NCBI RefSeq assembly: GCF_030028105.1 | Contig: NC_092399.1 | Coordinates: forward strand, 14,404,881-14,468,880 | Reading direction: 5' to 3' | Source of the DNA: Mobula birostris | Taxonomy: Eukaryota | Length of the DNA stretch: 64,000 bases | Shown here: piece by piece, positions 34,817 through 61,540 of the stretch | How positions within the stretch are numbered: position 1 is the stretch's first letter | Layout: each line of letters starts with the position of its first letter | Notes under the pieces: model-generated | Told to the model about the DNA's origin: nothing | Databases searched by the model: none | Seen by the model: the letters and a program-made list of their open reading frames with translations, nothing else | Position numbers and translations under genes: made by a program

Positions 34817-34818
34817 TT

Positions 34819-34977
34819 ATGAATAAGGACAGGTTATTTCGGAAGCTCTTTGTGGGTGGGTTACCGTATCACAGCAATGAAGGGTCTCTCACGCGGCACT
34901 TCCAGCGGTTCGGCGAGATTGAGGAAGCGGCGGTGATAACCGACAAGCTGACCGGCCGATCACGAGGATACGGCTTT
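34819..34977 (+). CDS. RBM24/38-like coding exon 1
   Basis: [53 protein letters not shown]; donor gtgagt. Confidence 0.92.
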
Positions 34978-35130
34978 GTGAGTATCGAATTCGTTGCAAG
35001 TCGAAGGTTCTTGGTGGCGAAATCTGCTTTCGGGTCGGGTGCTACCCGGTGGAGGTTGCTGATTAGCAAAGGCACTTTGCATTTAGCGTTTCAACGAGCG
35101 GGAAAAGCCTATCAGACGAGGCAGTCACCC

Positions 35131-35163
<33 letters not shown>

Positions 35164-38100
35164 TCTCTCTCTCTTTGCGTCTTCTCTCCCCCAGTCCAGA
35201 CTTAAATAGACGGAGGACCAGGGAGGCAACACAAGTATTGAGATCACGTGGCCCAGAGTACGTCGAATGCTAAAATACTGAAATAAAAACTAGAAATGTG
35301 AAGACTGACTGCGGGGATGGGGGGAAACAGACCTTGAGTCTGCCTGACCACCGCGTAGCCACATACACAAATCCCATTGTGTTCCCATTAATCCCCATTC
35401 GGATTCTACCACTGGCAAACAAGTGACAACTTCTAGCCTCCTCACCTTGTAGGTCCCAGATGCGAGGGCAAATGCACGGTGTTCCATTTTTTTTTGGAAA
35501 CGTAGTTGAAGCTGCTTCCTGTTATAAATGCTGCCTGACAAGGTTTCTCCAGGTGCCAGCATCTGCAGCCCCTTGTATGCCTCCTACTGTGTAAAACTGA
35601 ACTGGTGCCTATTGGGGGTCAGTGGGCTGGTCTTCAAAAAGCTAAACCATGTATAGAAAGACAGTGAGATGATATGCCCTGTTGGAGCACGTTGGACAGA
35701 GAGGTGAGTGAAGGAAGTGGCGAGAAATCTGTGGATTTAATTTTAGAAATGAAAGCGGGTAAAATTAGAAATAGGTTTTACACTTCTAAGAAATAATAAG
35801 GGAAGATTTGCAATGGGATGATATTCAAGAGAAATTAAATAAGGGATGATGCTAGGCAAAACAGGGCTAATGATGTAGGTTTTGAAAATGAAGTTCAAAG
35901 TAAATTTATTATCAAAGTATGTTTGTGTCATCATGTACTACCCTGAGCTTGCTTATTTATTGGGACACAGGATGGAATACGCTCTCCCAGCCCTTCGAGC
36001 CTTGCTGCCCAGCAACTGCTAGCCTAACTACGACCAATTAACCTACCAATGTGGGTGGGGAACTCCTGCGCAGTCACAGGGAGATCGTACAAGCTCCTTG
36101 CAGTCAGCAGCGGGGAATTGAACCTGGGTCGCTGGTACCGTGAGCTGTTGTGCTGACCGCTGTGTCGCCCTACACCGGGGGTGGGGGGGGGGACTGTGGG
36201 CATCGATCCTGCTGCCTCTCGTACGCTGAGCAAGTGTGCCGCCATTTGCAGGCAGCCACAATAGAACAAAGAAAGACAAATAGGATCAAAGAAAAACTGG
36301 ATGCAAGGACTGACAACCAACCAATGTGCAAAAGAAGTCTAATTTTGCGAATGAATAATCACATGTAGAGTCCTTGTAAGTGAATCCATTGGCTGTGGAA
36401 TCAGTTCAGTGTTGAGGCGGTGAAATTATCCACTCTGATTCAGCAGCCTGGTGGTGGATGTCCCTGAACCTGCTGATGTGGGACCCAAGGTTCCTCTACC
36501 TCCTTCCAGATGGCAGCAGCAAGAAGCGATGTCATTTGGAGGAAGTACAAGTGATGAAATGGTTACCAGGATGGCCTGGTTGAAAGTTGAGATGTTGGCC
36601 TTTGAGTATATATTCGCTGGAGAATTAATATGAAACATAACTGGGACAGAACGCAGATGTAAACCTGTTTCTTAAAGTCTGTTACCCAAACTGGGTAGGC
36701 TCGAGGAAGGTTGGAAATGTGTAGCTCCCAGTGGTTGATGGTTGGGCTGAGTAGTACTCAGATCTTGGTGATTTACTTGCAAACGTTTCATCACCGTCTG
36801 AGGAGACATCGTCAGCGCACTGATGGTGTCTCCTCGAATGGTGATGAAATGTTTGCAAATTGATTGCCAAGATTGCAGAAGGATAATGTGAAGTTGAGGG
36901 AAGATTATGGATTGGCAGCAATTTTTCCAGTTCAAGAGAGCGAGAACCAGAACTGGCACAATCATTGGTGAACTGTGGGGATGGGTGGGGAGAGTTGAAG
37001 GAGAAGACCTGAGTGTGAATGAAACAAAAAAATAATTTTGCCTTAGTGTCAGGAAGAATGAGGCATGGTGGATTTCCTTTGGAATTCTTTATTAGGGGTG
37101 AGGGAAAGGAGAGTTGGTAGAGGTGGACTGATCTACCCTGTGTCCGGAGAAGGTGGAATCTGCAAGGTGTAAATGAGGCTGGGAAGAGATCATTGTTAAA
37201 GTGATGGAAATTCACAGGAGCTGTTGAGGATGTATCTGGGAAAGGAATTGGAGAAAAGATGAGAAATGAATTGATGTAGAAATAAGCTTGGTGCAGCGAG
37301 GAAGTCTGAATGAATAAGCACCCCGTGCAGTTCGGTTGTGAACCCAGGGGAGGAGCAGAAACAAAGCATGCTGGGAATGTCTTGACTCAGAAAACTCTCT
37401 ACGGACATAAAGTCAGTGATCGTGTGGTTAGTGGTCAGGTGATGGTCTACAGAGAGATGGGTGGAAATCTTGCCTGATGCACAGTGGCTTCTCCCAGACC
37501 TTCAGACACTTGCCTCCAAATTTGTCTTCAGGCCAGTCTCCAAAAATCTTACATTTAATGGCCCTCCCTCTCCTGGCAAGCTATTGATCTGCCTCCAACC
37601 TCTTTCCCCTGAAACCCTTGAACACAGGTATCTCCTAAACCTGTGCGTTTCTTCCAGAACTCCATGCTTATTTCCCCCCCCCCACCCAAAGTCAGGCTTT
37701 CACCCTGCTTCAGTGTAGATGATCAACTCAATTTTGTGAGGCAAGAACTCCCAGCAGGCAAATCGAATGGCAGTGAGCCAGTATTTTGTGTCTGTAGTAC
37801 AGGGTCCAAAAAGTCCTGGAACCCTTCCAGGATTCAAACAACAAAATTTCAACTTGCTGTTCAAAATAATAATTGAGTTGTATTATGCATAATTATTTGC
37901 TTTGTCAAACCTCCAAGCATTTTTTTAGCTACTGTATATTCTAATCTTTCTGTGCAGACTATTCCTTAGCCATTTCAACCGGTTTTATTTTTTATCCAAT
38001 TCACAGATGCTTTTTGCTGGTAAAATACTGTGTTTCAACAGTTCATGCTGTGATATTTTTCGTAACTTTAAATTCAATGCTCTCTAATTATAAAGTGCAT

Positions 38101-39251
38101 ATCTACCCCTAATAATCCTCGAAGATGGCAAGGGATTTATTTTTTTCTCTTGTTATTTTCCTTCATTAGTTAAAGTTTATTGTTGTCATGGGAATACATA
38201 CCCAGCGGGGTATACGTGCCATGAAAATTAGCTTTTTGCAGCAGCACAATATGTTTCAAATCAGGGCAAACATTGATTAACAAACTAAAATTAACAAATT
38301 ATACATAACTTGCATGTTCAGAAAATAACAACATATGCTATGGAGAAGCAAAGAGCAAGGAAGGAGTCATTAAATGTTAAATTGGACTTCCTGGCGGGAA
38401 CCACAATGATTATTGACAATATGGTAACTTGTGCATTCAATAAAATTTTGCAATTTAACTAAAATCTTCCATTAGTTCAAATTTGCATGTTTATCTCACA
38501 CCTCTATTATTTAATGTACAGCATTGTACTTTATACTTTATTGTCACCAAAACAATTGATACTAGAATGTACAATCATCACAGCGATATTTGATTCTGTG
38601 CTTCGCGCTCCCTGGAGTACAAATCAATAGTAAATATTAAAAATTTAAATTATAAATCATAAATAAAAAATGGAAAGTAAGGTAGTGCAAAAATACCGAG
38701 AGGCAGGTCTGGATATTTGGAGGGTACGGCCCAGATCTGGGTCATTGTACAAAATACACACACACCTATACCTGTAGCTCGGGTGCCTAAAACTTTTGCA
38801 CAGTGCCGTACTTATCAATGTGGGCGGAGAGCGAGTTTGTAAATCTGCCGGGGGTAAAGGAAATTGGGAGTGGTGAGGGTGGAACGCTGCAGGACAGGTG
38901 ACAGAGAAGGAATGCTGGGGTGGGGGGTGGTGTGGCACAGGTGCAGACACACCCAGCCCTGAGACACCAGGCAAGGTAATTTAATCTCAAACAATTGGTT
39001 TATTGATCATTACAGAATGTCTCTCTGGTGCTTCCCGCTCCCTTGCCTCTCCCTTCCCCTTTTCCCAGCCATGATTTCCCTCTCCCTGACCCTTCCCACT
39101 GTCAGTGCACAATGGATACCCATATCAAAATCAAGTTTGTCATCACTCACGTACGTAATGAAATTAGTTTTTTTTGTGGCAGCAGTACAGTGCGATACAT
39201 AAAATTACTACAGCACTGCACTATGCAAGAAGCTTAGGCACCCTAGCTCTA

Positions 39252-39307
<56 letters not shown>

Positions 39308-42300
39308 CACACACCTAAGACTTTTGCACAATACTGTGATTGTAACAACATGCTAAATGGCTGGTGCCTCTACCACGTGTGCTTGGAAATCTTCTTCTTA
39401 TCCTTATTTCAAAATTTCATCTGAAATTTCTTGCACTGAATTGTATCTGTTTATCCTGTTTGGTATCAGATAATTTCAATATCCCTTCAGTGCTACAGAG
39501 ATCAAGAGTTATAGGTTCTCTTGTGAATTGTTTGTTAGTTTTAAAGTTTAACAAGATGCACTTCAGATGCAATAGAAGAATGGGGTGAATTGGAACCAGC
39601 AAGGTTTTCAGTTGCTACAAGTTTCACAATCGGTTTTCATTTGACGTTATTGAACTGCCAGCCTTCATGGTGATATGGAAATCTTCAATGATCAGCTCAG
39701 TGGCCCAGAAATAGTCACAGTCATACATTATTGATCCCGAGGGAAATTGGTTAATTCCAGTTGATTGGAAATCATTCTAGTGGTATTAAGACAGGCTATT
39801 TCAAGCAAAAGGGGGTGCCATAGCATAATTGTTTAACTACGTGTGGGATGTTCCTGTGAGGAGCTGGTATGGACATGAGTCAAATCTCCTGCATCCTTAA
39901 GCCCTCACAGGTCAGAATGTGATGAGCCAATCTTCAATCCATGGTTTGAAGTGGCTAGAAATCTCCAAATGGTTGTCATAATTGGGCTCTACAAGGTAAA
40001 TAACCAGATCTCCTGTTCTCCCTGGGCCTAGGTGCATATGGTTGTAAGGGAAATGGGCCAGGTTGTGCAAGGTTGAACCTTCTACCTGTGATTGTCGTTT
40101 TCCTGCCACCTCTTCCAACACTGACCTCTCACAGCCATGAGGCTCCAAACAACATTGACCTTGGTTCTCTGGCCGTCCTTTAGGCTGATCCTGCACCGCC
40201 GTCTTGAGAGCCTGTGCTGTAAAAGTCTGTTTCACATCTTAGTTGTCTCTGATATTCAGCACCGTTTTAAAACTACTTAAATGAAATGTTTTTAATTTTG
40301 TTTAAATGAAACAAAGAAAAGTAATTGTTTATCTACAACAACAAATTTCATGACATATGTCAGTGTTAGTAAACCTGATTCTGAACTTAACTTTTTAATG
40401 GAAGTTCATGACCTGTTGGATTAATGAGGCAGTGATCGATGGTGTCAAGTGTGTCCTGACCTTCCCTTTCCTAACAATGAGAAGCACTTGGACTTGAAGG
40501 AGAGTCGGGGGTGGACTGAGCTCAGGTGCAGTGGTGTAATGGTGTTGCTGCCTCTCTGCTCCAGGAGCCTGACCCACATGTCGAACACGGTCTGCTGCAT
40601 GACTTGTGTAGGGTGGGTTTCCTCCAGGTGCTCCCAATTTTCTCCCACACCCAAAAGGAACGCTAGTAGGTTAACTGAATGTTGTAGGCATCCCTGTGGA
40701 ATAGCTTAATGGCAAAAGGAACCTAAAGGCAGTTAGGCGTGTCTGAGAGAGACCGAGTTGCAAGAGTATAGGGAAAACGGGAATGGGGCTATGGGGTTAT
40801 TACTCGGAGAATCACGCGGAGCCAATGGGTTGAATGATCTCCTGTATTATTGTAAGATGCAGCCACGAGCATATTTTGTACTTTTGCATTGCATGTCACA
40901 GGCACGAACATCCGGAATGCACTGCAGCTAGTTAGTGGCCCTTGGTGTGATCTGGTCAAGTACACCTGACCTGGCTGAATAGGTCACTGATGCCTCTGCC
41001 CAGGTTTGCATGTGAATGAACACTTGGCTGAAGTATTGGATGACAGCTGCCTTTTGTTGGAAGTCTTACTTGTGCAAGGATTGCCTGTATTGAAAAGCCA
41101 AATACAGAGAACTTTTAAGTTTGATCCTTTTGACCTGATGAGGTGGGGGTCAAACCTGAGACTGGAGAACTGTGTCCCTGAGCTACATCTCCTCTAATTT
41201 TATTGGTTGTATTACAGGTCACCATGGCAGATTGGGCTGCAGCTGAGAGGGCATGTAAAGATCCCAATCCCATCATTGATGGAAGGAAAACTAACGTAAA
41301 TCTTGCTTACCTTGGGGCCAAACAGCGCACTGTACCTTCAGGTACTGTATGTTTAACAGTCTTTGGGATGTCATTGGGAACACAGTTTTGACTTGAGTTT
41401 GAATGTGGTTGGTTAGGTCACTTAACCTGGTATGGTTTCTCCTTTAATAAGCAAAGTTCAAGGTAAATTTATTATCAAACTATGTACATGTCACCATATA
41501 CGACCCTGAAATTTCATTTTTGTTGCGGGCATACTCAATAGAACAACAACCGTAATAGGATCAATGGAAGACCACACTAACTAGGGTCTTCTGCAACTGG
41601 GGTGTCCAAGAGACAACAAACTGTTCAATACGATAAAGAAAGAAATGATAATGTATAGATAAATAAACAAATATATGTGTGGCGCGTGGCCAAGTGGTTA
41701 GGGTGTTGGACTAGCAATCTGAAGGTTGTGGGTTCGAGCCCCAGCCGAGGCAGCGTGTTGTGTCTTTGAGCAGGACACTTAATCACACAGTGCTCCAGTC
41801 CACCCAGCTGAAAATGGGTACTGGCAAATGCTGGGGTTAACCTCGCGATAGACTGGCGTCCTATCCGGGGGAGGGGAAGGAGTCTCGTACTCTGTCGCTT
41901 CACGCCACAGAAACCAGCATAAGCACCGGCCTGATGAGCCTATAAAGGCTCGGGACAGACTTTAACTTAACTTTAAATAAGCAATAAATATCGAGAACAT
42001 GAGATAGAGTCCTTGAAATGAGTACGTAGGCTGTGGACTCTTCATCTTATATTCTTGATTATTTGTGTTTTTTTTTTTGTTTTCCCCAATTAGTTGTCTA
42101 CCCTCTTAAAGCAAACTGTAATGTTTTCCATCAATAATGACAACTTCCTGAATTTATGCAGTGCCAAGTTCTTGTGTTATTTCTCAACATAATATGGTTC
42201 TATTGTTCAGTTGCATCCTGACCTGTCAACATAAATTCAGTTCTTGGATACTGTTTGGGAACTGGTCTGTCTGATCTTGACATCCATTAAAATTTACTTC

Positions 42301-45300
42301 CCAGTAGAAAATTACTACTCCCTCTGTTTCTGGAAATCTACTCTCGCTATTATGAGCATGGCCAACAGTTTAAACTTAGTTTGCTCAAAGTAAATTTATT
42401 ATCAAAGTGCATAGGTGTCACCATATACAACACTGAGATTCATTTTCTTACAGGCTTACACAGTAAATCCAAGAACCATAATAGAATCGACGAAAGTCTG
42501 CACCCAACAGGGCGGACAAACAGCCAGTGTGCAAAAGACAACAACCTGTACAAATACAAAAGAAAAAAAAAGCAATAAATATCAAGAACATGAGATGAAG
42601 GGTCCTTGAACTGAGTCCATAGGTTATGGGAACAGTTCAGTGAATGGGCAAGTGAAATTGATCCCCACTGGTTCGAGAGCATGATGGTTGAGGGGTAGTG
42701 ACTGTTACTGAACGTGGTGGTGTGTGTCTTGAGGCTCCAGTACTACCTTCCTGATGGAAGCAGCAGGAAGAGAGCATGACCTGTATCCTGCGAGAGCATT
42801 CTGTGTAGGTGTGTTCGATGGCAGGGAGGACTTTGCTCAGGATGGACTGGGCCGTATCCACTTTTTTTTTTGTAAGATTTTCCATTCAGGAGCATTGGTG
42901 TTTCCATACCAGGCTGTGATGCAGCTGTTCAATATACTCTTTGTTACAAATCTATAGAAGTTTGTCAAAGTTTTAGATCTTCACAAATTTTAAAGGAATT
43001 GGATTTACTGTCGTGCTTTCTTTGTAAGTGCACTTGCATGCAGGGCCCAGGACAGGTCCTGAGGAACTTTTGAGTTCTTCCAGGTGCAGATCCATGGTCT
43101 TGCGAGACTAATAGATGCCACCCATATAATAATATATGTGTTTAACTTGATCAAGTGTAACAGATAGTAAAACAGGGTCTATTTTCAAATATATATGATT
43201 AATTAAAATAATGACTGGGAATTTACTGCTTTAAAAAGAGTAATGCATGCAGAGCATTTATTTGAGTGCAAATTGGACAATTGATTATGTACAGTTATTT
43301 AAAAACAAAAAACATGTTGTCTGAGATGCACAGAAAATGGATTAACCTACCCCCAAAATAGTAACTTATGTCTGGTTCCTCATTTGAATGTATTGTTCCT
43401 GTACTTGCAAATCAGGTTTGGAGCAGAAAATATGGACATTTCAGTCTCTTTTTTTAATTATTGGTAAGACAAAACCACTGTCAGCAACCCAATTTTCACT
43501 GAAAATTATTTTCTCTAAGTGAGGTAACCCCTGCTTCAAATTTTAATAATTTCAACATAAATAACCTTCATTTTATTTCATTTTGAGATTTTACTTGTAC
43601 TTCCTGGTTCTAAAATGAAATTGCAATCTGATACACAGTACTGTTCAAATAAATCCCAGAAACCCTGAGACCTCACTGGATCATCTTGATCTCTAACTTG
43701 TGTTAGTTTTGAATATAAAAGGTCATACCAGCCCTTATTCATGTAGTTTGTAATAAATACTACAGTAAATTCTGGTTGCTTTATTTTAAACAAGGCAAGG
43801 ATGATGCCAGCTAGACAACATTCATTGATGGAATCACTGATGATTGAACATTTACTCTGATGATGTTCCCTCATAATGCTGGACAAATATTCCCAAATTA
43901 CTGTCATTTATCCTGTTTGAACAAATAGTTATTTTGGGTAGTAAAACAAGTAATTTATATATAGAAAAATCAACTTGAAATTGTCCAACTTGTTCATTAA
44001 GTTTGTTGCGTTTTCAGAATCACTCCTAGAGTACCTGCTTTTTAATATCTCAATCAGGAATATTGGCAGGCTGAATTATCTAAAACATGGGTCCATTAAT
44101 AACTGATCATGGCTATAAGCTTGGGTTATGCGGTATGTATCAATTACTTTAAGTAGATGAAAGTATACTTGTGGATTGTGTGGTGGCACAGCTGTATACT
44201 GTTTCTGTTCTAGTGACCCAGCTTTGATTCTGATCCCAGGCGTAGTATGTGTGGTGTTTGAGTTTCCTCCGAATGCTTCCGTTTTTTCCCACATTCCCAA
44301 GGTGTGCTGGTTGGTAGGTTAATTGCCTACTGTAAATTGTATATCGTATAGGTAGGAGAATCGGGTGAATTAATGCACACGGAGAAATTGGGACGATCGT
44401 CGCTGACATAGCTTCATTGAGTAAGAAGTGTGTGGAAGAAAGGCAAGTTTTTAAAAAAAATCTCTTGCCTTTTACTTAAAATTGCTGTTCAAGTAGACTC
44501 TGTGTTCCCTGAAGCTCTTCCCATTTTTCTTCATGTCCTACATTGTATCTGGATGAATTTTAGGCTGCTTATTAGAAAATCTATCCTCTCTCTTTTTATG
44601 GCTTACTGAGGTACCGTCATCGAGAGATTTACAGCCCACCAAGACCACGATGATCTGCCGTCATTAACACTATTCAAATATTATTCCCACTTTTTTAATT
44701 AATCCTCACCCCATTCTCATCAGATCCCACCTTATTCTGTCACCAGCCTACATACCAGGGGCAATTAATGTACCAGTCCACACATCTTTGGGATATGGGA
44801 GGCAACCAGAGCACCTGGAGGAAAGCTGTTCCATTATAGAGAACATGGTCTCCATACAGATGACTGAACCTGGATGTCTGGCACCGTGAGGCAATATATT
44901 TCTGCTGAGTGTGCTAAGGTTCTGCCCTTGATACATGGTTTAACAATGGCAATTTAATACCTTGGGCAAGTGACCCAGGTGGCAATGAGCTACCTGATCA
45001 TAGTGCACGGGGCATCACTATTCGGTTCAATTCCATTACCACTGCTGGTGTTCATAGGTCAGTGAATAAAGGTCAGGAAACCCAATGCATTGAAGTACCA
45101 AAAAACTAACAGAATCCAATTGAGATGTTTGTTTGTACTTTGGACCTACTATGGCCTAAATTTGATCTCTACACAGGTTAACAAAGAACTGGTTTATTAA
45201 TACACTTTTCTCCTTTTTTTTAAAAAAAACTTAAATCAGGAAGTCTTGGTCTACAAGTTCACTCAGCTCTGATGCAGAGACCTTATGGGTAAGCATTTTA

Positions 45301-46542
45301 CTTGTTGTGAGCCAATCTGAAATACAAAACCTGTTAAGAGAAGAGAGCTTTTATTTAGCTTGCTTTAAAAATCTGGTGCTATGAGAGAAGATTCATACAG
45401 CAGTGCCAGAAATGGATGGGTAACCATTATCAATACACGTGCAGATTTGGTGAAGCTGATTAGAATTGGGCTATTTCAACTATTGACAGGACCACAAATG
45501 CATTGGAATGATGCTGATTTTGAAGAGAGTTTATAAGTTTGCCCTAATGTGAGTACTTCTCCCCCTGAAGAAATGAAAAATTATCCTTTTATATATTTTC
45601 TGAAACTGAATTGGAGAAGATCCTCCGTACACATGTTAAGCAAAAGCAAACTTTTTGATTTCAAAAAGGCGGAGTTAAATATATCAATGAAGCATGGTTA
45701 GATGTTTTATTTTCCCATCACTTATTTCTCAGTGTATACTGAGGTTGACTTGAACTTCTATGATCTCCTCTTCCATCTGGTTCTGTAAGTTTATTATATG
45801 CAGTGTTCTAAGATGCCTAATATAAAATGGAAACGGATGTAAATTCCAGGAATCAATCCTGATACTCTCTCAAGTCTAGCAGGTTTCACAGGATAAAAGA
45901 GGTATATACTTCTTTCCAACTTTAACACACTTCCAGAAAAGCTTAATTTAAATTGGTGTCTTTTGCATTAGTGTTGTGTTCCATAGCACATGGGGTGAAG
46001 TTTGAACCCATAACTCAAAGATTCCAGTACTATCAGTGAGCAAGCTGACAGTGTACGAAAGTGATTAGCAAGTTAAGACACAAATTTGTGCAATAATTTA
46101 ATAATGCCATAGCATCACTTTGCTGTACAACTTTGAAATAATTCCCAGGAGTACACTGATCTTGGTAAAAGCCTTTAAATGGGAGATTTCTCATCTTGGA
46201 TTTTATGTTATCTGCATGTTCTTTTTTTTTCTCTCTGTCTCCAATAAGATTATTAATACTCTTAACCTTTTATCAACCTATTCCAGAGTTGGACCATACC
46301 TGATCCCACAGACCATCATTCAACCTGGCTTGGTTCTACCCTCCACCTCGTACCTGGAATCCAGTGTAGCCTTGTATGCACAGTATCCTGCGTATGAACA
46401 ACTCTACCCAGTTTCTTCTCATTATCCCAATCCTGGTTACACCTACACAGTACAACTTCCATTACAGACTGGAATTCCAAACTTAAGCCAAGTTCAGCAC
46501 GAGCCAACAATACTGCACACGGCTGGTCTTCAGAGACGATAA
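34819..46542 (+). CDS. RBM24/RBM38-family single-RRM RNA-binding protein, full gene: join(34819-34977,41218-41341,45240-45288,46287-46542), 195 aa
   Basis: RNP2 LFVGGL, RNP1 RGYGFVTM and family signature [26 protein letters not shown]; GT-AG introns with consistent phases (0,1,2); 588 nt including stop. Too divergent to call RBM24 or RBM38. Confidence 0.9.
35137..35176. repeat. (CA)n(CT)n microsatellite
   Basis: Directly visible. Confidence 0.9.
36762..36873. repeat. 112-bp inverted repeat made of two head-to-head hammerhead-like PLE termini
   Basis: Arms 36762-36815 and 36820-36873 match at 43/54 by hand count; each arm carries CTGAYGR...GAAAYGTT. Confidence 0.8.
38530..38742 (-). mobile_element. 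Young retroposon 3' end with 8-bp TSD
   Basis: cattgtac at 38522-38529 and 38743-38750; homologous to 29940-30215. Confidence 0.72.
39211..39338. mobile_element. Tc1/mariner-type MITE with an internal (TA)n microsatellite
   Basis: Imperfect TIRs (…tgcaagaagcttaggcac / cctaagacttttgcacaatactg) around (TA)n at ~39256-39301. Confidence 0.6.
41218..41341 (+). CDS. RBM24/38-like coding exon 2
   Basis: [41 protein letters not shown]; ttacag / gtactg; 124 nt. Confidence 0.93.
41680..41975 (+). mobile_element. tRNA-head SINE (second family)
   Basis: ggcgcgtggccaagtggttaggg...gggttcgagcccc head; (ttaac)n tail; nested in an older LINE tail. Confidence 0.75.
42385..43040 (-). mobile_element. Decayed Rex1/Babar-like LINE 3' part
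   Basis: Same family features as 30240-31450; tail tcaaagtaaatttattatcaaag. Confidence 0.6.
45240..45288 (+). CDS. RBM24/38-like coding exon 3 (49 nt)
   Basis: (G)[15 protein letters not shown](G) aligns to RBM24 GFAFGVQQLHPALIQRPFG; aatcag / gtaagc; phases fit both neighbouring exons. Confidence 0.85.
46287..46542 (+). CDS. RBM24/38-like last coding exon
   Basis: [18 protein letters not shown]...[12 protein letters not shown]...GYTYTVQ...LQRR*; ttccag acceptor. Confidence 0.85.
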
Positions 46543-47335: not shown

Positions 47336-47341
47336 AATAAA
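47336..47341 (+). terminator. Candidate poly(A) signal of the RBM24/38-like gene
   Basis: AATAAA ~800 nt after the stop, followed by a GU/U-rich run at ~47354-47372. Confidence 0.6.
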
Positions 47342-48464
47342 TCACTGCTTGAAGGTTGTTTTTTTTTTTTTGCTCTCTATGAGTAACAAATTACCCAGTA
47401 AATATTTATGAACCAAATCTAGTTAACCTGTCATTTGGTAGGAATGTACAAAATGTAGTCTATTTCCCATATGTAACTGTATAAATTTGTTTAGCGTATA
47501 TTATTAGAGATAAACTAATGCAAAATGCCGCCAGTGCAGATATCTATCAACATAATCCCTGATGCCAATAGAACATGACTTTGTGCCAACCATATCTGAG
47601 GTATGTTGTTGGGAACAGGTACTATGAGGGTGCTTACTCTAAACAGAAAATTGGTACATCATTTTGTAATGCTGAACCATCAGACTGTTAAATATCATTA
47701 CATTCTGAACTAATTTCTGACCAGATCTTTGTACCATGGAATATTAAAAATATCATTATGGCAAAAAAGGAGTTGTACAGTGTGTTTACTGGAACTTTAC
47801 AAGAGCCACAGGGTCCAGATTAACTTGACTGATTTTTGCTCGGTTCTCAAACAAACAAATGGGGCTTCCAACACTCTTCTTTAACTTTCAACATCGGGAG
47901 TGATTTTGTGTGTAAAAATAACTGAGGGGTAATTGAAGATACACTTAGCAGTACAAATTGTAAGCCTCAGCAAACCAGTGTCTTTGCTTAATCAGTCACT
48001 GGCTCTGGGTGGAAATGTGGAGAAAGGGACAAAAGCTATATATTATTGGGGGGGGGAAGAATTCTCCTGTCTACAATTCCTGTTTGTAGTTAAATTGTAG
48101 GTGAAAAATATATACACTACAATTCACAGTTAACTACTACCACAAAGTAACGACGATAACCCTTTAGAAGTACATCTTCAGTCTTAAGATTCTTTTGGTT
48201 CTGCATGCTTCATGTATCCCCAAACAGCTTCATTTTTTTGATCTTTTATTTCCCTTATGAGTTAGTTGACTTTCTCCAGTCTGGTTTGTAGGTAGTCGGG
48301 AATGTTTTACCTTGTATGTTAGTAACATATTATTCAAGAACTGCTACTTCACTTGCAGTGGAGCCTCTGTCTCCGTTCCAGTAACTAGAATTCAGTCCTG
48401 ACCATCTCCAATGTAGTGTGGAGGTTTTCCACATTGGATTTCCTCCAGATGTTCCAGTTTCTGC

Positions 48465-48700
48465 CAGTGGTTAGCACAATGGTTTACAGTGCAGGTGACC
48501 TGGGATCAATTCCCACCGCTGCCTCTAAGGAGTTTGCCTGTGACCATGTAGGTTTCCTCTCACAGCCCAGACGTACCAGTTGGTAGATTAATTGGTCATT
48601 GTAAATTGTCTCATCATTAGGCCACGATTAAGTCCAGGGATTGCTGGCTGGCATAGCTCGAAGTGCCTGCTCTGCTGTATCTTAATAATAAAAATAAATC
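48465..48700 (+). mobile_element. tRNA-derived SINE
   Basis: Same family as 10897-11175. Confidence 0.65.
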
Positions 48701-51423: not shown

Positions 51424-51555
51424 CAACACACATAAAAGTTGCTGGTGAATGCAGCAGGCCAGGCAGCATCTCTAGGAAGAGGTACAGTCGACGTTTCGGG
51501 CCGAGACCCTTCATCAGGACTAAAAAAAAATCCAGCATCTGCAGATTTCCTCGTG
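51424..51555 (-). mobile_element. 132-bp mini Penelope-like insertion with inverted terminal piece and TSD
   Basis: tttgggagattttaac repeated at 51408-51423 and 51556-51571; two pLTR pieces in opposite orientation joined by an A-run. Confidence 0.8.
51485..51521 (-). ncRNA. Intact minimal type I hammerhead ribozyme motif (GUC triplet)
   Basis: The reverse strand reads AGTC CTGATGA A GGG tctcgg CCC GAAA CGTC GACT(G); all core nucleotides are present. Confidence 0.8.
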
Positions 51556-52049
51556 TTTGGGAGATTTTAACGTTGTGAAAAGCCGTATATAAACGAAACT
51601 GCCTTTAAAGTACACATATTTTAGATTTCCATGGTTTTCATTGTGGAATTGGGTGAGCATGGTCATCAATCGGAAATGTTTTAGCTTGTTCCTCACTGCA
51701 GATTCTGTATTCTAATTTTATGTACATAAAAGGTGTGAACAATCAACAGTTCACAGAGCAGTCTTCACCAGTCAAGACGGTAGCAATTCCGCTACTGCAT
51801 TTAGCTCTTGGCAACAGAGAATGCTGAAACAAAAAAAAACAGGAATCACTGATTCTGTCATCGGTTTGAGATCTGAGGCCGCAATGAGGCCAAGTTCCAA
51901 GCCCAAAACATTTACAAATATCCTTCAGAATCTACATAGGTGGCTGTCCACGGTGCATGTTTTAGCTCCTGGACCTCTCTCTCTGGGACACACTTCCCGA
52001 GCGGTAACTATGAGAGTATTCACACAGGTTCCCTCCCCTCTGTGCAATG

Positions 52050-52560
52050 GTGGGACGGAGGGCTCGAACCACCTCCCCTCAGCTCTGGACCTCCGAGGCC
52101 GCCGGCCCTCACAGCCCCGTGTGCGTGTGTGTGCAAGCTCAGGGAGTTTGATTTCGCAGAAACACCGCCTGCTGAAAATCTTTTCTTTTTTAAAATAATA
52201 GATGCAAGTGGAGGTGGGGAGACAGAAGCAGATCGGCCCTTCCCTTCCTCAGAACGATCCTTCCTCTCACTTCCGACCCGAGACGGCCTTCGCAAGAAAA
52301 ATCTCCTCTCCCTCCGCGCCGCAGGGCCGTTTCTTCCATATTAGGAGATAGCGGAAGCGGCCCGCGCCGCGCGGGGGGTTCTGGGGCCGGCGGCTGGAGG
52401 CACTTCCGGGGCGGATTCCGGCAGCGGGGGAGCGACTCCTCGGTGACGGTGAGAGACTCGGCTTCGGCGGCGCTCGGTGCTATTTGCTCAAAAGTCTATT
52501 TAAGCAGGATCTGTGGGGTTCTCCGCCGCCGCTCGGCGTGCTGGGGGTATTATTCAGGGG
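52050..52560 (+). promoter_or_regulatory. CAP1: CpG-island promoter and non-coding exon 1 of the CAP gene
   Basis: High GC/CpG; CArG CCATATTAGG at 52336-52345; ETS motifs cggaag 52352-52357 and cacttccgg 52401-52409; GC box ggggcgg 52408-52414; donor ACG|GTGAGA at 52448/52449. Confidence 0.7.
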
Positions 52561-53205
52561 GTGGGGTGGGCGTATGCGTGTGTGTATAAATGTTTTGATT
52601 TCTTCCCCCTGCCTCCCTCAGGTGAGGAGGTGCGAGCAGCAGAGGACTGAGGAGGTGCCCGAGTTTCTATTGTGGAGGGAAAAGGAGGGTGGGGGGCAGA
52701 AGGAGCTTCTGTGCTCAAGCATTAAACTTGTCTGCAAAAGAATCGCTGCTTGTTTGACTTCCTGTTTGTGTATAGGGCGGGTCCGCCAGGAGGCTTTGTA
52801 CTTGTATGGTACATCTCTCACGGAGGACTAGTCTTCCTAAAAAGTGCATATGGTTGTTCAGGGGATTTGTAGCTCAGAGGTCAAGGCTGGATACTTCTTG
52901 ACAAGTATTGCAGAGATCTCAGTGATCTCTGGTGACGGCAGAAGCAAAACATCCAACTGAGCCGCGAAACAGAATGAAAAATCGGCTTTGATTCAATGAA
53001 CTTAAAGATGCAGCTAATTTACCAGGAAGTTCGCCTTTTGGATTTGAAAACTTCTGAGCGTCAGTGATCTTGGTCGGCCATCTAAACCTGTTAGATGTAT
53101 TAAGAGAATCGTGGACTTAGAATGAAGTGTCAGAACCAGCGCTGGAGGTTTGTAAGTTGATTAAGTCCCAAAGAATCCTGAGTTTGGAAAGGGGTGCCTG
53201 TACAG

Positions 53206-53285
53206 CAGGGGTTCCCAATCCTTGTTACACCATGGAACCTTCCCTTTAACCGAGGGATCAGTAGACCCCAGGTTGGGAACCACTG
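53206..53285. mobile_element. hAT-type MITE (inverted copy of 28321-28399)
   Basis: caggggttccc...gggaaccactg termini and shared internal sequence. Confidence 0.72.
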
Positions 53286-53519
53286 TGCTAGGTGCTTTGG
53301 TTATCATCTTCCAGAATTCTACAAGTTTTGGTGTCCTTGTGGTTTGGAGGATGAGGGATAAAATGGAGAATTTCCAGGCTGTCAGCAAAAGGAAAATTGC
53401 TAGAATCTACAGGATGAAATGTGATAGCAGAGAATCTTGAAAAGCTAACATAAGTTTTTGAGAAGAAGATCTTGTTTGATTAATCTGCTGGAATACTTTG
53501 AGGACATAACCCGTATTGG

Positions 53520-54045
53520 GTTTTTTTTTGTTACATGTACCAAGAAACAGTGAAAAGCTTGTCTTTCATATTGTTCATACAGATCCAACCATCACATAGT
53601 GCACTGAGGTAGAACAATGCACTATAAAGTTTCAAAGCTGCAGGGAAAGAAGTGTGGAGCGGGTAACGATACGTAAGGTGGGTGGGATGTGAGGTCAAGG
53701 GGCCATCTTATCTTACAAGAGGTCTAAGAGCAGGATAGAAGCTGTCCTTGAGCCTGATGGTAGATGCTTTTGTATCTTTTAGAGGGCAGAAGAGAAAATT
53801 TTCTGGGTGGGCAGGATCTTTGATTACGTTGACTGCTTTACAGGGGCAGCGAGGTTTAGACAGTCCGTATAGGGGAGGCTCTCTTCCGTGATTTGCTGAG
53901 CTATGCACAGATCTGGAGTTTCTTGTGGTCACGTGTGAGCAGCTGCCATCCCAAACCATAATGCATCCTAATAGAATGCTTCCTATAGTGCATCGATAAA
54001 AATTGGTAAAGGTCGACTGGGACATGCCAAATTTCTTTAGTCTCC
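53520..54045 (-). mobile_element. Decayed Rex1/Babar-like LINE fragment
   Basis: Minus ORF 53708-54025 contains TNFYRCTIGSILLGCIMVW...TIRLKDSFYP. Confidence 0.7.
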
Positions 54046-57000
54046 CCTCCCTCAGTGGCAGGAGTGATACCCCTTTCTCCCTTGTTAGCGTGAGAAAGAG
54101 CCTGTAGGACGTTAAACTGTTGGGATGGACTGGAGATCGTGGTCTCTTTGGGGCTTTGCTATTGCTTGCATGGGCGGTGGTGGGGGGGGTTGATGCTTTT
54201 GCTGAGGGAGGAGGGGAAAGATTGATACTTTGCTGCCGCTTGTGTGTGGGAGGGGCTTCTGGGTGCTAAAGTTTTTCTGTCATTCATTCTTCGGGGTTTT
54301 CTTCTGTTTCGTGGATGTCTGTGAAGAGTAAGAATTTCAGGTTGTATACTGTGTACATCCTCTGATGTTAAGTGAAATCACTGACAGTGGAGGCATGGGT
54401 GAGATTAACTTGGCTGGACCAGGACAGGCTTTTCATGATGCTTACTGTTAGGAGCTTCTAGCTCTCAACATCAGTGATGCATACTGGAGCAAGAGGGCAA
54501 TCATTAGATTTGATAAATTTGCACATCAGGAGAGGTGATCAACCATGTTCGAACACTTGGCACTGGGGGAAATGTACTGATGTGAGTTGAAAATTGGTTA
54601 TTGGATAGAAAACAGGAACAAAGATATCTCATCAAAATGTACAAAATTCTTAAAAGGATTTAATGCAAGAGGGATGTGGAGGAATAAAAAAATGTATTGT
54701 GGATTTTGAACCTTTGGGCATTCTCTTCTGAGGACTGTGGAGACCCGGTCATTGAGTTGATTCAAAACTGCTATTTCTTGTGGTCTGCTTCAGTGTTTTT
54801 TTTATTTCTTTACCTCAATTAACAAAAGCCTAATTAATGATTTGAAGGGAATACAAAAGCATTTGTTGATTAAGAGTACATTTAGCTGCATTTAGGATAG
54901 CAACAAAGTAATAAGGGGTTAAAATTCCTATTCCTTATATTAGTCATGATTAGCATCTTTGCATGCTTGTCTTAACTGGCCACTGTTGGAAATTGACCAA
55001 CTAGGGCTGAACCGTTGGTTTATTTTTTTTTAATAGTATATTATAAATAAGTGGTTTCCCAAGATGTTTTCCTTTTTTTAAATTTTTAATCAAAATTTAA
55101 GTTGCTTTCTGTTTTGGTGATTTGGGTGTTGGGGATGTTCAGTGGGTTTTAAGTCATTAAGTTTTGACAAATAAACTTCTTATTTTATTCCTTTTCTGTT
55201 TCTTTAAACCTGATTCAGAATGTATTGATTTTAGAGGAGCTTTCTTATTTGAACTTGGGATTGTGTTGTTGGTTCGACCATCATTTATTCTTGAATGAGC
55301 TCTTTCAGCCAGTGGTACAGTTAGAGTGGGATTGACGGTTGTCAAAGAAGTCCGCAGCGAATCACCTTCCTGAGCCAGTCTCTGTGGTGAAGGTATTACC
55401 ACAGTGCCGTTGGAAAACAGGTGATTTGAACTCTACAGCAGGGAAGCATTCCCAGGTCTGCGTGGTGTGCAACTCTGAAGCAAACATGGTGTTGCTGTGC
55501 AGTTGAAACCTTGTCCTCAGCAAATGAGGTTGTGAGTTTGGGTTTTATGCAAAAAAAAATTTTAACAAATTTTTAAAAGGATTGGGAAACCAAACACTTA
55601 TTCGTGTCATTGTGCCATTTTGCATGTCTGCTATTCAATTAACAAAGTCTTCCTGATGAGGTGGTCATAACTAAGTAATGTTTTGCTCCTCAAGTAAGTT
55701 GTAAATACTGGCTGTTGAGTGGTCAAACTCCTCTTCATCATCTGGGTTACATCTTTTTTTAGCTTGTGGCTGGATGATGCTAAATGCTATTTTTAAGAGA
55801 GGGAAAGAAATATAGCTTTAGATCCAATATTACTTTGTTGTTTTTTCCTTTTATCTAGGTAAGATAATGGAATATTGGTGCAATTCTGTAAATCATGTCT
55901 ACAAATCATAAGACAACTTGCTCAATAAATTGAGTGAATACGTAGTTCTTTTTCCAAAAATAGCAAAAAGATCCGAGAACAGAAGCCACACTACTTAAGT
56001 ATTGGTTGTGAATAGACATATGGCAGACAGGAAATGCTTGTGTTGCAAAATTTATGACTAAAAGCTGTTCATTATACTTTGGAATTTTTCTCTTAAATGT
56101 AGCTGGGAATATGTAATTACTTGTTCCAAGGAAGAATACTTTTAATGGTTGAATCATCACAGAAACTTAGGTGAAATGTTCATGTTCAGTCTGCAAGTGC
56201 CCTATAAATAAACCTTTTTTTCCATTGGGTCATAAAACAAGTTTGGCTAATGTCCTTATTGACACACCATTTTCTAAAGTGTTGGGTAACATGCAGAACT
56301 TCCCTCTGCATCTAAGCAGATGCGGAAGCTGGTAGATTGGAGAAGTGCATTTTCATCCTGTAGAAGTGTTTGACTTTAAATTGGCAGTCTAGGTGATAAA
56401 AATTCATGACAGTTGTTATTTTAAGAACATGAATTACACATCACTGCAGTTACAGGATGCACATAATTTTCCTGTCCTCTCTTAACTGAAGTTTGTTTGA
56501 CCATGATTGGTAAGTGGCTGTGTTCTGAAATGTTAGCTTTCTTTTTCACAGATGTGGGTGCTTTCCCATTTTCACTTGTTTTTATTTCTGATTTCAAACA
56601 TCTTGCAGTTTGATTTGATTTTCAGTGCAGAGATTTGAGAACTGAAGATGAATGCCAATTATATTTAGAAGATACTGTCCCAGACCAATAAATAGCAATG
56701 TTTTCTGAATGCCAGTGAAATACAGCTCAGGAGTGTGTGTAATAATAAATTACTCCAGTGAATTAGATAATATTTATCTGAACACTACTGTATTTAAAAA
56801 GAAAATGGGCATCTTGCATTGTCACTCTTTTCCTGGGAGCCTGCTGGCACATTGTTGCCTTGTACTTGATTTGTACTTCAAAATATACTTGATTGTAAAG
56901 CAGTTTATGATGTACTGAAATTGTGAAGGCTCTTTTTCACATTATCATGTTTATGTAGTTTTGCCAATATGTGACTCATCAGCTTTCGGCCTCAACCCCA

Positions 57001-57339
57001 CCCCTGCACAACCCTCTTTTGCAGAGTTTCTCCAGCAAATTGATCAGCCAGTTTGAGGTCCCAACCTGAGCCCCTTAGTCTAAACCGTGCACGTCTGTAG
57101 AAGTATCAGGAATTCAGTTAGCGCCAGTCTCTTGGTTTGGAAAATGTGAATCGGCTGTGGATGCCTCTGATGACTGTATAAGAGTATATGGGCCTCTGTG
57201 GCAAAGGCCCATATTTAAGTACACAATAACTTCCTGAGGTACAGGAATGCATACTTGCCCAAGGGTCAATGTGTGTTTTTAGAATGTGTATCTTCCCGGT
57301 TCATAGAACTTTATGTTGGTTATACAAGCATACACACAA

Positions 57340-58230
57340 ACGCGTGAATTAGGAGAAAGTATGCAACTCGATTCTCAAACTTGCTCCTCTATTATCATGG
57401 CTAATCAGATTGAAGCATTAGCACAATATTCCAGTCTACCTGTTGTAATATTACGACATTTTGTTTATGAAGAACCTGTCTACCCTTAAAAATATTCGGA
57501 GCCCTTTTCCACTAGTCTTTGCAAATAAGAGTTCCAGAACCTATAGAGAAACACGTCATCTGTTAAAGTGAGCGACCACAATTCTAGATGCTTCTGCAAA
57601 AGGAAACAGCCTCTCCACACAAATCTTGTCGGCTGCCTCAGAATCTTCTACACTCCAACAGATCCAATGCTAGCCTATCTAACCTCTCTCTCCTCAGAAT
57701 GTAGCCTGCCAATTCCAGTATTGGTTTCTGAACTGCTTTCAACGCATTAAATAAAACAACAGTACTCTTTGCGAGGTCTTGCCAAAGCATTACACAACCA
57801 AAACATAGTCTGCTTTTGTATTTAAGTGCCCTTGCCATTAATAGTAGTATTTCAGCGTTCCGAATAAATGAATCTGCGCCTTTACCTTTTGCAAATCACA
57901 CTGGATAGGTAAGGCCCTGTACATCATCTAAATAATATTTTTTAGCTTTTTGTACCAAAATTGAAATTTCATCTTTTCCTGCACTATACTCTATTTGATA
58001 TAGCTACTGCATTTACTTAATCTGCCCATGTAGGTTTCTAGCCTTAGTGCATCCTGTTATAAATAGGATGTGATTTTGAGCAACCATGGCTTCAGTACCT
58101 CCATACAAGTTTTATAAATTGTAAAAAAAAAGAGACCCGACATTAGTCCCTGTGGCACAACATTTGTTGGTCTTGCCACTCAAAATAAGATTTGTTTGCC
58201 TTTTTTTCCTGATAACCAGCCAGTACTCCA
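57340..58230 (-). mobile_element. Highly decayed CR1 LINE
   Basis: Residual motifs (ARALKYKS, RERLDRLALDLLECRR; the reverse strand has gtgccacagggac). Confidence 0.5.
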
Positions 58231-58455
58231 TTTACACCGGTCTGTAGCATTCAATGGTATGCAGAATTACTTTCTACTTTAATGTTTAATGTGGTATGCT
58301 TTCAAAGGCATTTTGGAAATTGGAAGTATTTGGTAGTCTCAGTGTTTCCCTTTACTTCAAACAGCACAGGGATGCTTGTGTGTCAGTTAGGGGTCCACTA
58401 TGAGGTAGACTTAAAAAACCCATATCTGTTCAGTGCATCTTGTTTTGAATCATTC

Positions 58456-58668
58456 GTTCATTCATTTACAGTTGTGGCATTAGTTTCAGTTATTTGAAAT
58501 GAGAGATTTGTTCATTCATTTACAGTTGTGGCATTAGTTTCAGTTATTTGAAATGAGAGATTTGTTCATTCATTTACAGTTGTGGCATTAGTTTCAGTTA
58601 TTTGAAATGAGAGATTTGTTCATTCATTTACAGTTGTGGCATTAGTTTCAGTTATTTGAGATGAGAGA
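58456..58668. repeat. 54-bp minisatellite, ~3.9 almost identical copies
   Basis: Unit gttcattcatttacagttgtggcattagtttcagttatttgaaatgagagattt starts at 58456, 58510, 58564 and 58618. Confidence 0.95.
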
Positions 58669-58829
58669 CAGTTTTTGACTTGAAAGCTCACTGGTATCGA
58701 GTCCATTCTTAAGTGAGCCATTTCCTGTAATGTGTACTTTGTGCTGATTAGGGTTTATTGGTTGTTACACTGGTCTTTGAACAGTAATCCTAAAAAGTTG
58801 AAGTTGATCGCTCTCAAAATGGATTACAC

Positions 58830-59490
58830 TTAGATTAGATTATGAGGACACGCAGTCCTCTTTTATTGTCATTTAGTAATGCATGCATTAAGAAATGATA
58901 CAATGTTTCTCCGATATGATATCACAGAAACACAAGACAAACCAAGACTCAAAAAACTGACAAAACCCACAAAATTATGACGTAGTTGCAACAGTGCAAA
59001 GCAATACCATAATTTGATGAAGGACAGACCATGGGCACGGTAAAAAAAAGTCTCAAAGTCTCTCGAAAGTCCCATCATCTCACGCAGACGGTAGAAGGAA
59101 GAAACTCTCTTCCTGCCATGAGCTTCCAGCGCCGCAAACTTGCCGATGCAGCACCCTGGAAGCACCCAACCACAGCCGACTCTTGAGTCCATCTGAAAAC
59201 TTCGAGCCTCTGACACCGAGCACCATCTCTGCCAAGCACTTCGACCCCGGCCCTGGCAACAGGCAATAGGCAAAGCCAAGGATTTGGGGCCTTCCCCTCC
59301 AGAGATTCTCGATCGCACAGTAGCAGCGGCAGCGAAGTGGACATTTCAGAAGTTTCTCCAGATGTTCCTCCGTGCTTTTCACAGCTATCTCCATCAAATC
59401 AGAATTGTGCACGGCATCCTACTTCACAAATATGATATCATTTTGGAGCGACCGCGCACGCTGCGTTGCGCCATCATCTTCTCCTCTCCT
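58830..59490 (-). mobile_element. Non-autonomous retroposon (~660 bp)
   Basis: The minus strand starts GC-rich (agaagatgatggcgc) and ends with AATAAA and an (aatct)n tail; CpG-rich relative to the flanks. Confidence 0.55.
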
Positions 59491-61440
59491 CCGTTTATCA
59501 CTTCCTACTAATAACCACATAGTTTCCAGTATCTGAAAAATTTTCCCTTGTTTATACGTTGTTTTAATTGCTGTGTTTATGTTCATTGACTAAAATGGTA
59601 CAAAGTATGATGTTTTCTCTGTTAAACAATTATTCTGTAATGGAAATGTTTTGAGGGAACTCTGAGGTTGGAGCTTCACTTGTAGAAAGCTTCTGGTAGG
59701 AATCCAAGTCTCACAAGTGTTAAAAGTGATATTAATTTAGTCCTTTGGGAGGCAGCATGAACCCAGGGGAGCAATTTAATAGGAAGTGTCTAGAGGGAAC
59801 CCTGTACAGGTTTTCTCCAGGCTGCAGCAGGTTTTGTTCCTTTGAACTGTGCTTAATCAGTTTACTAAAACACAGCACAAATGTAGTGCCCAGACAGCAG
59901 AAGATGCCTGCAACAGATGACAAATCCATGCCTTTCTCCCAAATGTTCATTCATACGTACAGGTGTTCATTACTCGGCAAGGACCTGTAACCTAGTCTCT
60001 TGCCCATAACTCACCCCCTAATCTTTTGCCACACTGAGGACATTTTATAGTCACCAGTTAAGATATCAGCATATCTTTAAGATGTGAGAGAAAACTAGAG
60101 CACCCGGAGAAAACCCGTAATGAAGGAGAGAGTTTGTCACTCTGCACAGGTGTCATGGGTCACTAGAACTGTGAGGCAGTGGCGCTAACTGTTACATCAC
60201 TGTCTTCCTTTTACGTGATTAAATTTCAAAGCCAAGTAGCCAGATCCTACATATTTGAGTGATGGATAATTGTTTTTTGATTTTTGAAATAAGTGTAGGT
60301 GTGAGATCAATAAGTTTGCAGATGACGCCACAATTGGAGGTGTAGTGGATAGTGCAGAATGATGTTTAAAGTTACAGAGAATCTAGATCGTGCGGGAAAG
60401 TGTACAAGGGAATGGCTGATGGAGTTTAACTTGGACGGTGCAAATTGGTGTGCTTTGGGAAGTTAAAGCAGGACAGGATGTGCACGGCTGGGCGAGGAAG
60501 TGTTGATGAGCATTGAGATCTTTGGAGTATAAGTTCCCAAAATGTGCTAACAGAAGGGGGTGAGGTGAGGCCCTGCCACTCAAGGACTTGGGCTGTATAT
60601 TTTTTGTGTCTGTTTTTCTGTTATCATAACCATATGCGTTATGTGCAGTGTGCTGTTGGTAATTTACTTTGCACCTTGGCCCTGGAGGGACGGTGTTTTG
60701 TGTGGCTGTGTTCATGTATGGTTGAATTATTATTAAACTTGAAAAGAGCATGTGATAATGACCTTCAGCTGAGGCGATGAGTAGTGGCTTTGCCACAAAT
60801 CATTAGACTGTACTTGAAGTATTTTTTGTCATTCTGGCTGCTGTGTGATAGAAAGGATGTGATTAAACCAGAGGGAGTGGAAAACATTCACAGTTACATT
60901 GCTGGATCAGACAGCTTGAGTTATAAGTAAAGAATGGACAGGCTGGGACTGTTTTCTCTGCAGCATAAGAGCTTGAAGAGTGACTCAGATCTTTGCCTAT
61001 GTTTTTCTACTTGAAAGATGCAACTTTCGATCAAACTCCGGGATATGCAACACTTAGGCTTATTCCTGAGAGAGATTTTTATGTGGCTTTGATACTAAAA
61101 TATCTAAAGGAGGCTGGAAAATGTACCTCATCAAAAATTGCCTCAATAAACTTTGGAACATGGTTTCTGTATAAACTAGTACATTAGTGAAAATAAAGGG
61201 ACACCTGGCCTGCAGTGTTTCATATGTTAGTAATGTGTAGGGTGTACATCTTTGTGTCATTTATTTGGGGGGGGGAGAGAGAGGGAATATCAGCTGTACA
61301 ACAATTGTATAAATTGAAATGTTATACCTCACGGTGGATGAGAAAAGCATAACATTTGAATAAGCAATGTGTGTGTATTTTAAATAACATTTGCTTACTG
61401 CATTGTTGAACTTGTTGATCCTTCCTTTCAGGTTTGAACA

Positions 61441-61540
61441 ATGGCAAATATGGAAGCTCTTGTACAAAGGCTGGAGAAAGCTGTGCTGCGGTTGGAGACA
61501 ATAGGGTCATCTGCTGGAAGTGAAGTTGGTTTTTCTGATG
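61441..61540 (+). CDS. CAP1: Adenylyl cyclase-associated protein, first coding exon (gene continues beyond the window)
   Basis: MANMEALVQRLEKAVLRLETIGSSAGSEVGFSD has the CAP/Srv2 N-terminal RLE..V.RLE motif; acceptor ends 61431, donor gtaatg at 61541. CAP1 rather than CAP2 is inferred from GFSD~GYAD, the CpG-island promoter and TEKT2 linkage. Confidence 0.82.

Follow-up and report, generated by a model that had tools for sequence, protein, structure and literature searches.

Results

The window analysed here, a stretch of 64,000 nucleotides of Mobula birostris (contig NC_092399.1, positions 14,404,881 to 14,468,880 of the forward strand), carries TEKT2, a gene with a single RRM of the RBM24/RBM38 type, and the first coding exon of CAP1, in that order and all on the + strand. 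The RRM gene, which is the subject of this report, has four coding exons with canonical GT-AG sites at every junction, intron phases of 0, 1 and 2, and a spliced reading frame of 588 nt encoding 195 aa plus a stop, bearing out the intact gene described in a first-pass annotation of the same DNA. This third paralogue of RBM24 and RBM38 is a real, conserved and expressed gene of cartilaginous fishes.

The family assignment proposed in that annotation was confirmed by sequence and by fold. The protein has the same single N-terminal family RRM as RBM38 (RNPC1), RBM24 (SEB4) and C. elegans SUP-12 (matches 2CQD, 6JVX and 6JVY), the best five PDB sequence matches being RBM38 and SUP-12 (E from 1e-43 to 1e-39, with the next family at 1e-26). 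In a predicted model made from 17 sequences, residues 8-85 fold as an RRM and the tail is disordered, with RBM38 and SUP-12 again as the top six structural matches. Moreover, the tail is homologous along its length to the RBM24 and RBM38 tails, with 42-43 identities over 98-103 aligned positions.

Within the family the protein is distinct, as had been supposed. Its RRM is identical to that of platypus RBM24 at 66/88 positions and to that of opossum RBM38 at 67/88, while those two share 86/88, and the third clade received support of 100/100 in the careful trees. In an alignment of 31 rows (7 third-clade and 24 canonical), 13 RRM positions carry a residue that is fixed in all seven third-clade rows and found in none of the 24 canonical ones; 61 of the 88 positions are invariant in every row, and F11, Y17, R49, Y51, F53, R76, N79 and N81, the RNP1 and RNP2 aromatics included, are unchanged in 31/31. 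Among these, Y17, Y51 and R76 are presumably the equivalents of the SUP-12 residues that contact RNA. The two helices, which in the general RRM layout occupy the face away from the RNA, contain or adjoin six of the 13 fixed changes, and V38A, Q44L and K47R fall in strand 2 of the model and in the loop between strands 2 and 3; the net RRM charge is +5 to +6 in the third clade and +3 in the canonical proteins.

Ten RRM positions vary within the third clade. Across cartilaginous fishes its RRM is identical at 80-87 of 88 positions, and the window RRM agrees with that of the chimaera orthologue at 81/88. All five substitutions quoted in the first-pass annotation are present in the window protein; among the seven third-clade rows, T25 occurs in the window only, and L6 and Q89 (in AKQR) in the window and Hypanus only, the other quoted changes being clade-wide or nearly so.

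A search with exon 1 returned, among the best 120 of 187 matches, six named orthologues, from Hypanus, Pristis, Leucoraja, Heterodontus, Chiloscyllium and Callorhinchus, i.e., three batoids, two sharks and one chimaera, whose proteins are 89-98% identical to the exon. Their records are called 'RBM24-like' or 'RBM38-like', differing between species; these names are automatic labels. Between the window and Hypanus proteins there are differences at 2 of 195 positions. The contigs recorded for orthologue and CAP1 are of equal length both in Pristis (38,352,228) and in Chiloscyllium (51,668,882). Two records depart from the rest in their last part: the Callorhinchus protein (P0012) has 160 aa and its similarity ends after QPGLVLP, which may be an assembly or annotation frameshift or a real truncation, and Pristis isoform X2 (P0008) has a different, shorter C-terminus, which suggests that exon 4 is alternatively spliced close to its end.

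Three separate family genes are found in another batoid. Indeed, in the tables of the little skate genome paper Rbm24, Rbm38-1, Rbm38-2, Cap1 and Cap2 each have an entry of their own as expressed genes, so that the canonical pair expected in addition to the third gene does exist (PMC10115646). Its promoter bins place Rbm38-2 at 17.72-17.73 Mb of Leri_26C, Cap1 at 17.71-17.72 and Ppt1-2 at 17.65-17.66, and Rbm38-1 on Leri_21C (PMC10115646). Since Leri_26C, at 32,980,643 bases, has exactly the length recorded for the contig of the Leucoraja orthologue (P0010), skate Rbm38-2 (LE28106) is the orthologue of the third paralogue. The same tables rule out that the window gene is simply a misnamed RBM24 or RBM38: its neighbour is CAP1, while Rbm24 and Cap2 exist as further genes in the skate, and the third gene and Rbm38-1, which as the RBM38 orthologue would be expected on the GGA20-equivalent chromosome, are on different chromosomes (PMC10115646). 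The alternative in which the neighbour is CAP2 and no other RBM24 exists is thus contradicted. Skate Fam8a1 lies on Leri_2C, with Rbm24 and Cap2 gene numbers in the same range, and these neighbouring numbers suggest that Rbm24 and Cap2 are linked (PMC10115646).

Expression, which had been named as a check on the gene, is recorded in skate fin, where the listed baseMean is 654 for Rbm38-2, 445 for Rbm24 and 353 for Rbm38-1 (PMC10115646). In the one tissue comparison given, the log2 shift is -2.2 for Rbm38-2, -1.9 for Rbm38-1, -6.6 for Rbm24 and -8.3 for Myod1, and +2.7 for Cap1 (PMC10115646). In this fin comparison Rbm38-2 moves weakly with the myogenic genes, its behaviour resembling that of RBM38 more than that of the strongly muscle-linked RBM24, and since Cap1 shifts in the opposite direction the fin gives no co-regulation of Rbm38-2 and its neighbour. 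Furthermore, Rbm38-2 is listed with promoter-anchored chromatin loops (PMC10115646).

Outside the cartilaginous fishes, no orthologue was found among the matches listed in the ranked searches. In a profile search (best 120 of 3,943 matches), the 113 rows beyond the six orthologues and a Scleropages protein that formed part of the profile were only 50-66% identical and, where they carried names, were RBM24, RBM38 or unlabelled bony-vertebrate proteins. Among the best 150 of 29,149 matches in 1.84 billion representatives, the Leucoraja protein was the sole third-clade member. The 149 unlabelled representatives were considered as non-chondrichthyan orthologues and rejected: 63 belong to other RRM families, 46 with a mammal-like RRM (90% or more) were dropped, and none of the remaining 40 was nearer to the third clade than to a canonical RRM. 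When the tails of 33 further family rows were scored (21 left unscored), none was strongly third-clade-like, the best third-clade score being 141 in a row that scored 558 to RBM24, with one weak tie at 61; over 114 rows (the 113 profile-search rows and Scleropages P0032) the highest ratio of third-clade to canonical tail score was 0.30.

The Scleropages 'RBM24-like' protein (P0032) was itself weighed as a bony-fish orthologue and rejected, given that it groups with RBM24 and has a canonical tail. It is a strongly divergent RBM24 copy that has A38 and R47 in common with the third clade, apparently by convergence. A bony-fish copy lacking the stem changes could hide among the canonical-looking rows. 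To judge from its absence from the ranked search lists, bony vertebrates appear to have lost the paralogue. The first-pass proposal of a gene kept by this lineage and lost by mammals is thereby widened on both sides, to broad retention in cartilaginous fishes and to an apparent loss that covers the bony vertebrates seen.

Three trees were built, a quick one from 43 rows and two careful ones from 22 and from 20, along with six topology checks; the outgroups were unlabelled invertebrate-like rows, and RBM38 came mainly from amniotes. The third clade falls within the vertebrate group (97/99 and 75/99) and, given the Callorhinchus orthologue, predates the chimaera split, dated to ~420 million years (PMC6238376). 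Its stem measures 0.81-0.89 changes per column and the elasmobranch tips 0-0.08, so the description 'fast-evolving' holds for the stem but not for the crown: a burst of change preceded the shark-chimaera split and its products have been kept since, presumably under purifying selection, as the protein pattern and, indirectly, the expression in skate suggest. Five fast-evolving unlabelled RBM38-like proteins (P0259, P0287, P0327, P0334 and P0335), probably teleost, grouped with RBM38 in the quick tree.

In the eIF4E-binding motif of the tail (YPYAASPA in RBM24 and RBM38), the third paralogue keeps Tyr3 and Ser6 and has lost Pro2. The Ser-Pro proline, Pro7, is kept in both shark rows (P0009 and P0011) and lost in 4/4 batoid rows.

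The flanking genes agree with what had been read from the DNA. For all three TEKT2 exons tested (14315-14518, 24418-24564 and 26164-26355) the best match is Tektin-2, and the coding exons of this gene lie wholly inside the window. Over 33 aa the CAP1 exon agrees fully (100%) with Mobula birostris 'CAP1', and it shows 74-79% identity to CAP1 of Pristis, Amblyraja and Chiloscyllium; a search with it gave six proteins from 16 candidates, all four named ones (rays and one shark) being 'adenylyl cyclase-associated protein 1'. The nearest Atlas cluster of the full Mobula CAP protein is named CAP1 (0.99), and the protein aligns end to end with mammalian CAP1; its identity is thus by database names, not by a CAP1/CAP2 tree. 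The claim that the RRM gene stands directly upstream of a co-oriented CAP holds for order and strand, but its stop is 5.5-6 kb from the CpG island that is the probable CAP1 promoter and non-coding first exon, and 15 kb from the CAP1 ATG. Human TEKT2 we take to be several megabases away from CAP1, so the local gene order would be unlike that of mammals; human CAP1 presumably lies beside PPT1.

Coordinates are collected in Table 1. The CpG observed/expected ratio around the first exon of the RRM gene is 0.89-1.04 in 500-bp windows, against ~0.2-0.5 over most of the window, and the region would act as the promoter of the third paralogue. Between TEKT2, the RRM gene and CAP1, none of 94 reading frames of at least 55 aa had a Pfam match. 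The sole Rfam match found was a weak transfer RNA (tRNA)-like one in intron 2 (41685-41747, + strand; 29.3 bits), probably the head of a tRNA-derived short interspersed element. Many fragments resembling long interspersed elements, which we take to be of CR1/L2 type from their motifs, occur in introns and intergenic DNA at 18736-19236, 20561-21670, 24754-25202 and 61758-63226.

Table 1. Features of the window, numbered from its first nucleotide.
Feature	Position	Strand	Remarks
Third paralogue, coding exon 1	34819..34977	+	Residues 1-53; RNP2, helix 1, strand 2 and most of RNP1
Third paralogue, coding exon 2	41218..41341	+	Remainder of RRM up to AKQR; aligned with RBM38 and SUP-12 structures
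Third paralogue, coding exon 3	45240..45288	+	49 nt; agrees with orthologue proteins
Third paralogue, coding exon 4	46287..46542	+	Low-complexity tail and stop; tail predicted disordered
Eroded eIF4E-binding (Pep8-like) motif, L150-H156	46402..46422	+	Tyr and Ser154 retained; next Pro replaced by Ser
CpG-rich putative promoter/first-exon region of third paralogue	34250..35250	+	AT-rich TATA-like box near 34610
Candidate poly(A) signals AATAAA	47336, 48687, 48693 (span 47336..48698)	+	From sequence only
TEKT2, upstream gene (coding span)	8039..26382	+	ATG 8039, stop 26382; splice sites read
CpG island	51950..52700	+	GC 0.60-0.62; CpG observed/expected 0.84-0.86
CAP1, first coding exon	61433..61540	+	ATG 61441, 33 codons; only CAP1 coding exon in window

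Discussion

We consider it likely, taking origin and proposed mechanism together, that the window gene is a third SUP-12/RBM24/RBM38 member in jawed vertebrates. That it is an ohnologue of the early vertebrate genome duplications, as the first-pass annotation had suggested, seems to us, from synteny, the most probable origin. An ancestral RBM-CAP pair would have been copied in those duplications, giving RBM24 with CAP2, RBM38, whose partner CAP would have been lost, and the third gene with CAP1. The CAP1-linked copy, whose small chromosome belongs to the beta type that is prone to loss, would have gone through its burst of change before chimaeras and elasmobranchs separated, would have come under purifying selection afterwards, and would have disappeared from bony vertebrates. 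The gene does have a co-oriented CAP neighbour, mirroring RBM24, which in human we take to lie immediately upstream of CAP2. As for the host chromosomes, the skate supplement labels LER21 as 1-beta and LER26 as 2-beta with a question mark (PMC10115646). Beta segments are described there as showing more gene loss and faster evolution (PMC10115646), and biased loss from one subgenome has likewise been described (PMC8302630), which fits the history of the CAP1-linked copy.

Several points weigh against this reading. The expected shape, ((RBM24,RBM38),third), was not recovered: the quick 43-row tree joins the third clade to RBM38 with a Shimodaira-Hasegawa approximate likelihood ratio (SH-aLRT) of 97, the careful 22- and 20-row trees place it inside an unresolved RBM24 (57/81 and 49/73), and approximately unbiased (AU) tests reject no arrangement (RBM24 with RBM38, p 0.25 and 0.40; RBM38 with the third clade, p 0.35 and 0.44). 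The trees were drawn without cartilaginous-fish RBM24 or RBM38 and without named cyclostome or amphioxus rows, and the structural model is modest, with a mean predicted local distance difference test (pLDDT) of 51 and 51 residues at 70-90. Likewise, the RBM24-CAP2 adjacency is our assumption for human and only suggested for skate, and the skate supplement itself assigns LER26 to 2-beta tentatively (PMC10115646). Since the trees leave the position of the clade unsettled, the ohnologue reading rests on synteny, namely the co-oriented CAP neighbour and the beta-labelled host chromosomes, the protein trees being neutral (AU p 0.25-0.44).

Two other origins deserve attention. A segmental copy or transposition of RBM38 or RBM24 on the cartilaginous-fish stem, coming to lie beside CAP1, would agree with a gene seen, among the matches listed, in cartilaginous fishes only, with trees that attach the clade to RBM38 or within RBM24, neither being rejected, and with the lack of long alanine runs, as in RBM38. 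We find such an origin improbable, however, as it needs a chance co-oriented landing directly upstream of a CAP gene that mirrors the presumed RBM24-CAP2 pair; moreover, the four-exon structure rules out a retrocopy, and the long stem makes the tree placement unreliable. Nesting as a recent duplicate of either paralogue is without support. Alternatively, the gene could be an ohnologue whose real sister is RBM38, if the first duplication was resolved late or homoeologues underwent exchange, for which the SH-aLRT of 97 in the quick tree, the AU values of 0.35 and 0.44 and the beta labels of both host chromosomes in the skate supplement (PMC10115646) may be cited. The grouping with RBM38 vanished once the five fast RBM38-like rows and 16 others were omitted, as long-branch attraction predicts, and we judge this relationship quite unlikely.

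A decaying or non-functional duplicate is scarcely credible. Many substitutions, a shortened tail and the 160-aa Callorhinchus record, dissimilar in its last part, could be read that way, but the frame and splice sites are intact, the RRM matches that of the chimaera at 81/88 positions, and the skate gene is expressed and has promoter-anchored chromatin loops (PMC10115646). A pseudogene or retrocopy is likewise excluded by the intact frame, the introns, the conservation and the expression.

Under the ohnologue reading, the protein would work much as its paralogues do. RBM24 and RBM38 favour GU-rich RNA, and the serine of their eIF4E-binding motif is a GSK3 site, as reported for these proteins (PMC7463526, PMC5558909). 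With its RNA-binding core intact, the third paralogue probably binds GU-rich RNA too: by homology, the single N-terminal RRM would hold GU-rich single-stranded RNA on the unchanged RNP1/RNP2 surface, the disordered Tyr/Pro/Gln-rich tail would recruit partners, and the protein would regulate splicing or mRNA stability on targets shared in part with RBM24 and RBM38. In published peptide assays the motif depended on Ser6, on Tyr3 and on its two prolines (PMC9095979), and the motif changes of the third paralogue would probably weaken translational control through eIF4E and GSK3, most of all in batoids, where a lineage-specific loss of the phosphorylation site is possible.

A gene of the same origin may instead have taken another job, with new RNA specificity or partners, or as a competitor at RBM24/RBM38 sites without the eIF4E/GSK3 switch; we hold this to be doubtful. 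It would account for 13 fixed changes, R59W being a radical one, in a domain that is nearly invariant from nematode to human, for the raised RRM charge, for the substitutions in strand 2, in the strand 2-3 loop and around the helices, and for the loss of Pro2 and, in batoids, of Pro7, both prolines having been needed in the peptide assays (PMC9095979). By contrast, the RNP1/RNP2 aromatics, Y17, R76, N79 and N81 are invariant, Ser154 is kept, as is the Ser-Pro in both shark rows, and expression in skate fin shifts the same way as that of both paralogues. A more basic, re-surfaced RRM and an eroded motif acquired on the stem could conceivably mean different targets or partners, or a natural antagonist of RBM24/RBM38, with batoids going further through loss of the phospho-switch; if true, nature would here have uncoupled the part that the family plays in RNA processing from its translational switch.

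Compared with known members, the third paralogue shares the four coding exons of RBM24 and RBM38, presumably with the same junctions. Unlike both, it has a short N-terminus, no alanine runs and an eroded YPYAASPA, a divergent motif with two extra Arg in place of the terminal QxDRMQ, and the 13 fixed changes in a more basic RRM; unlike RBM38, it stands beside CAP1 and, in skate, on another chromosome. Teleost rbm24a/rbm24b and the Scleropages 'RBM24-like' gene are also extra fish copies of the family, presumably stemming from the teleost duplication, but they group with RBM24 and retain the YPYAASP and terminal motifs, unlike the third clade. A like history is that of ohnologues such as wnt6b and cspg5, duplicates kept on a conserved small chromosome of cartilaginous fishes; these are named in the skate genome paper among 68 differentially retained ohnologues, 19 of them chondrichthyan-only (PMC10115646). 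That list may include the third paralogue.

In a literature search whose scope excluded subscription journals, we found, among the papers listed, no description of a third RBM24/RBM38 paralogue and none treating rbm24, rbm38 and shark together. The family is absent from the main text of the skate genome paper (PMC10115646), and there is no mention of a third paralogue in the text or one supplement of an ohnologue database paper (PMC13450315), in 12 of the 24 supplementary files for the whale shark (PMC8455134) or in the text of PMC7471279. In the literature covered, none of the orthologue records seems to have been recognised as a separate paralogue.

In brief, nothing is overturned by these data, since differential ohnologue retention in cartilaginous fishes is already well described; what is added is a new family member, not a new mechanism. 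The RBM24/RBM38 literature covered deals with two vertebrate genes and their teleost copies, and a third changes the ancestral count for jawed vertebrates and corrects inconsistent annotations of shark and ray genomes. Furthermore, its substitutions in the RRM, a domain otherwise frozen, and in the eIF4E motif form a natural set that is directly testable.

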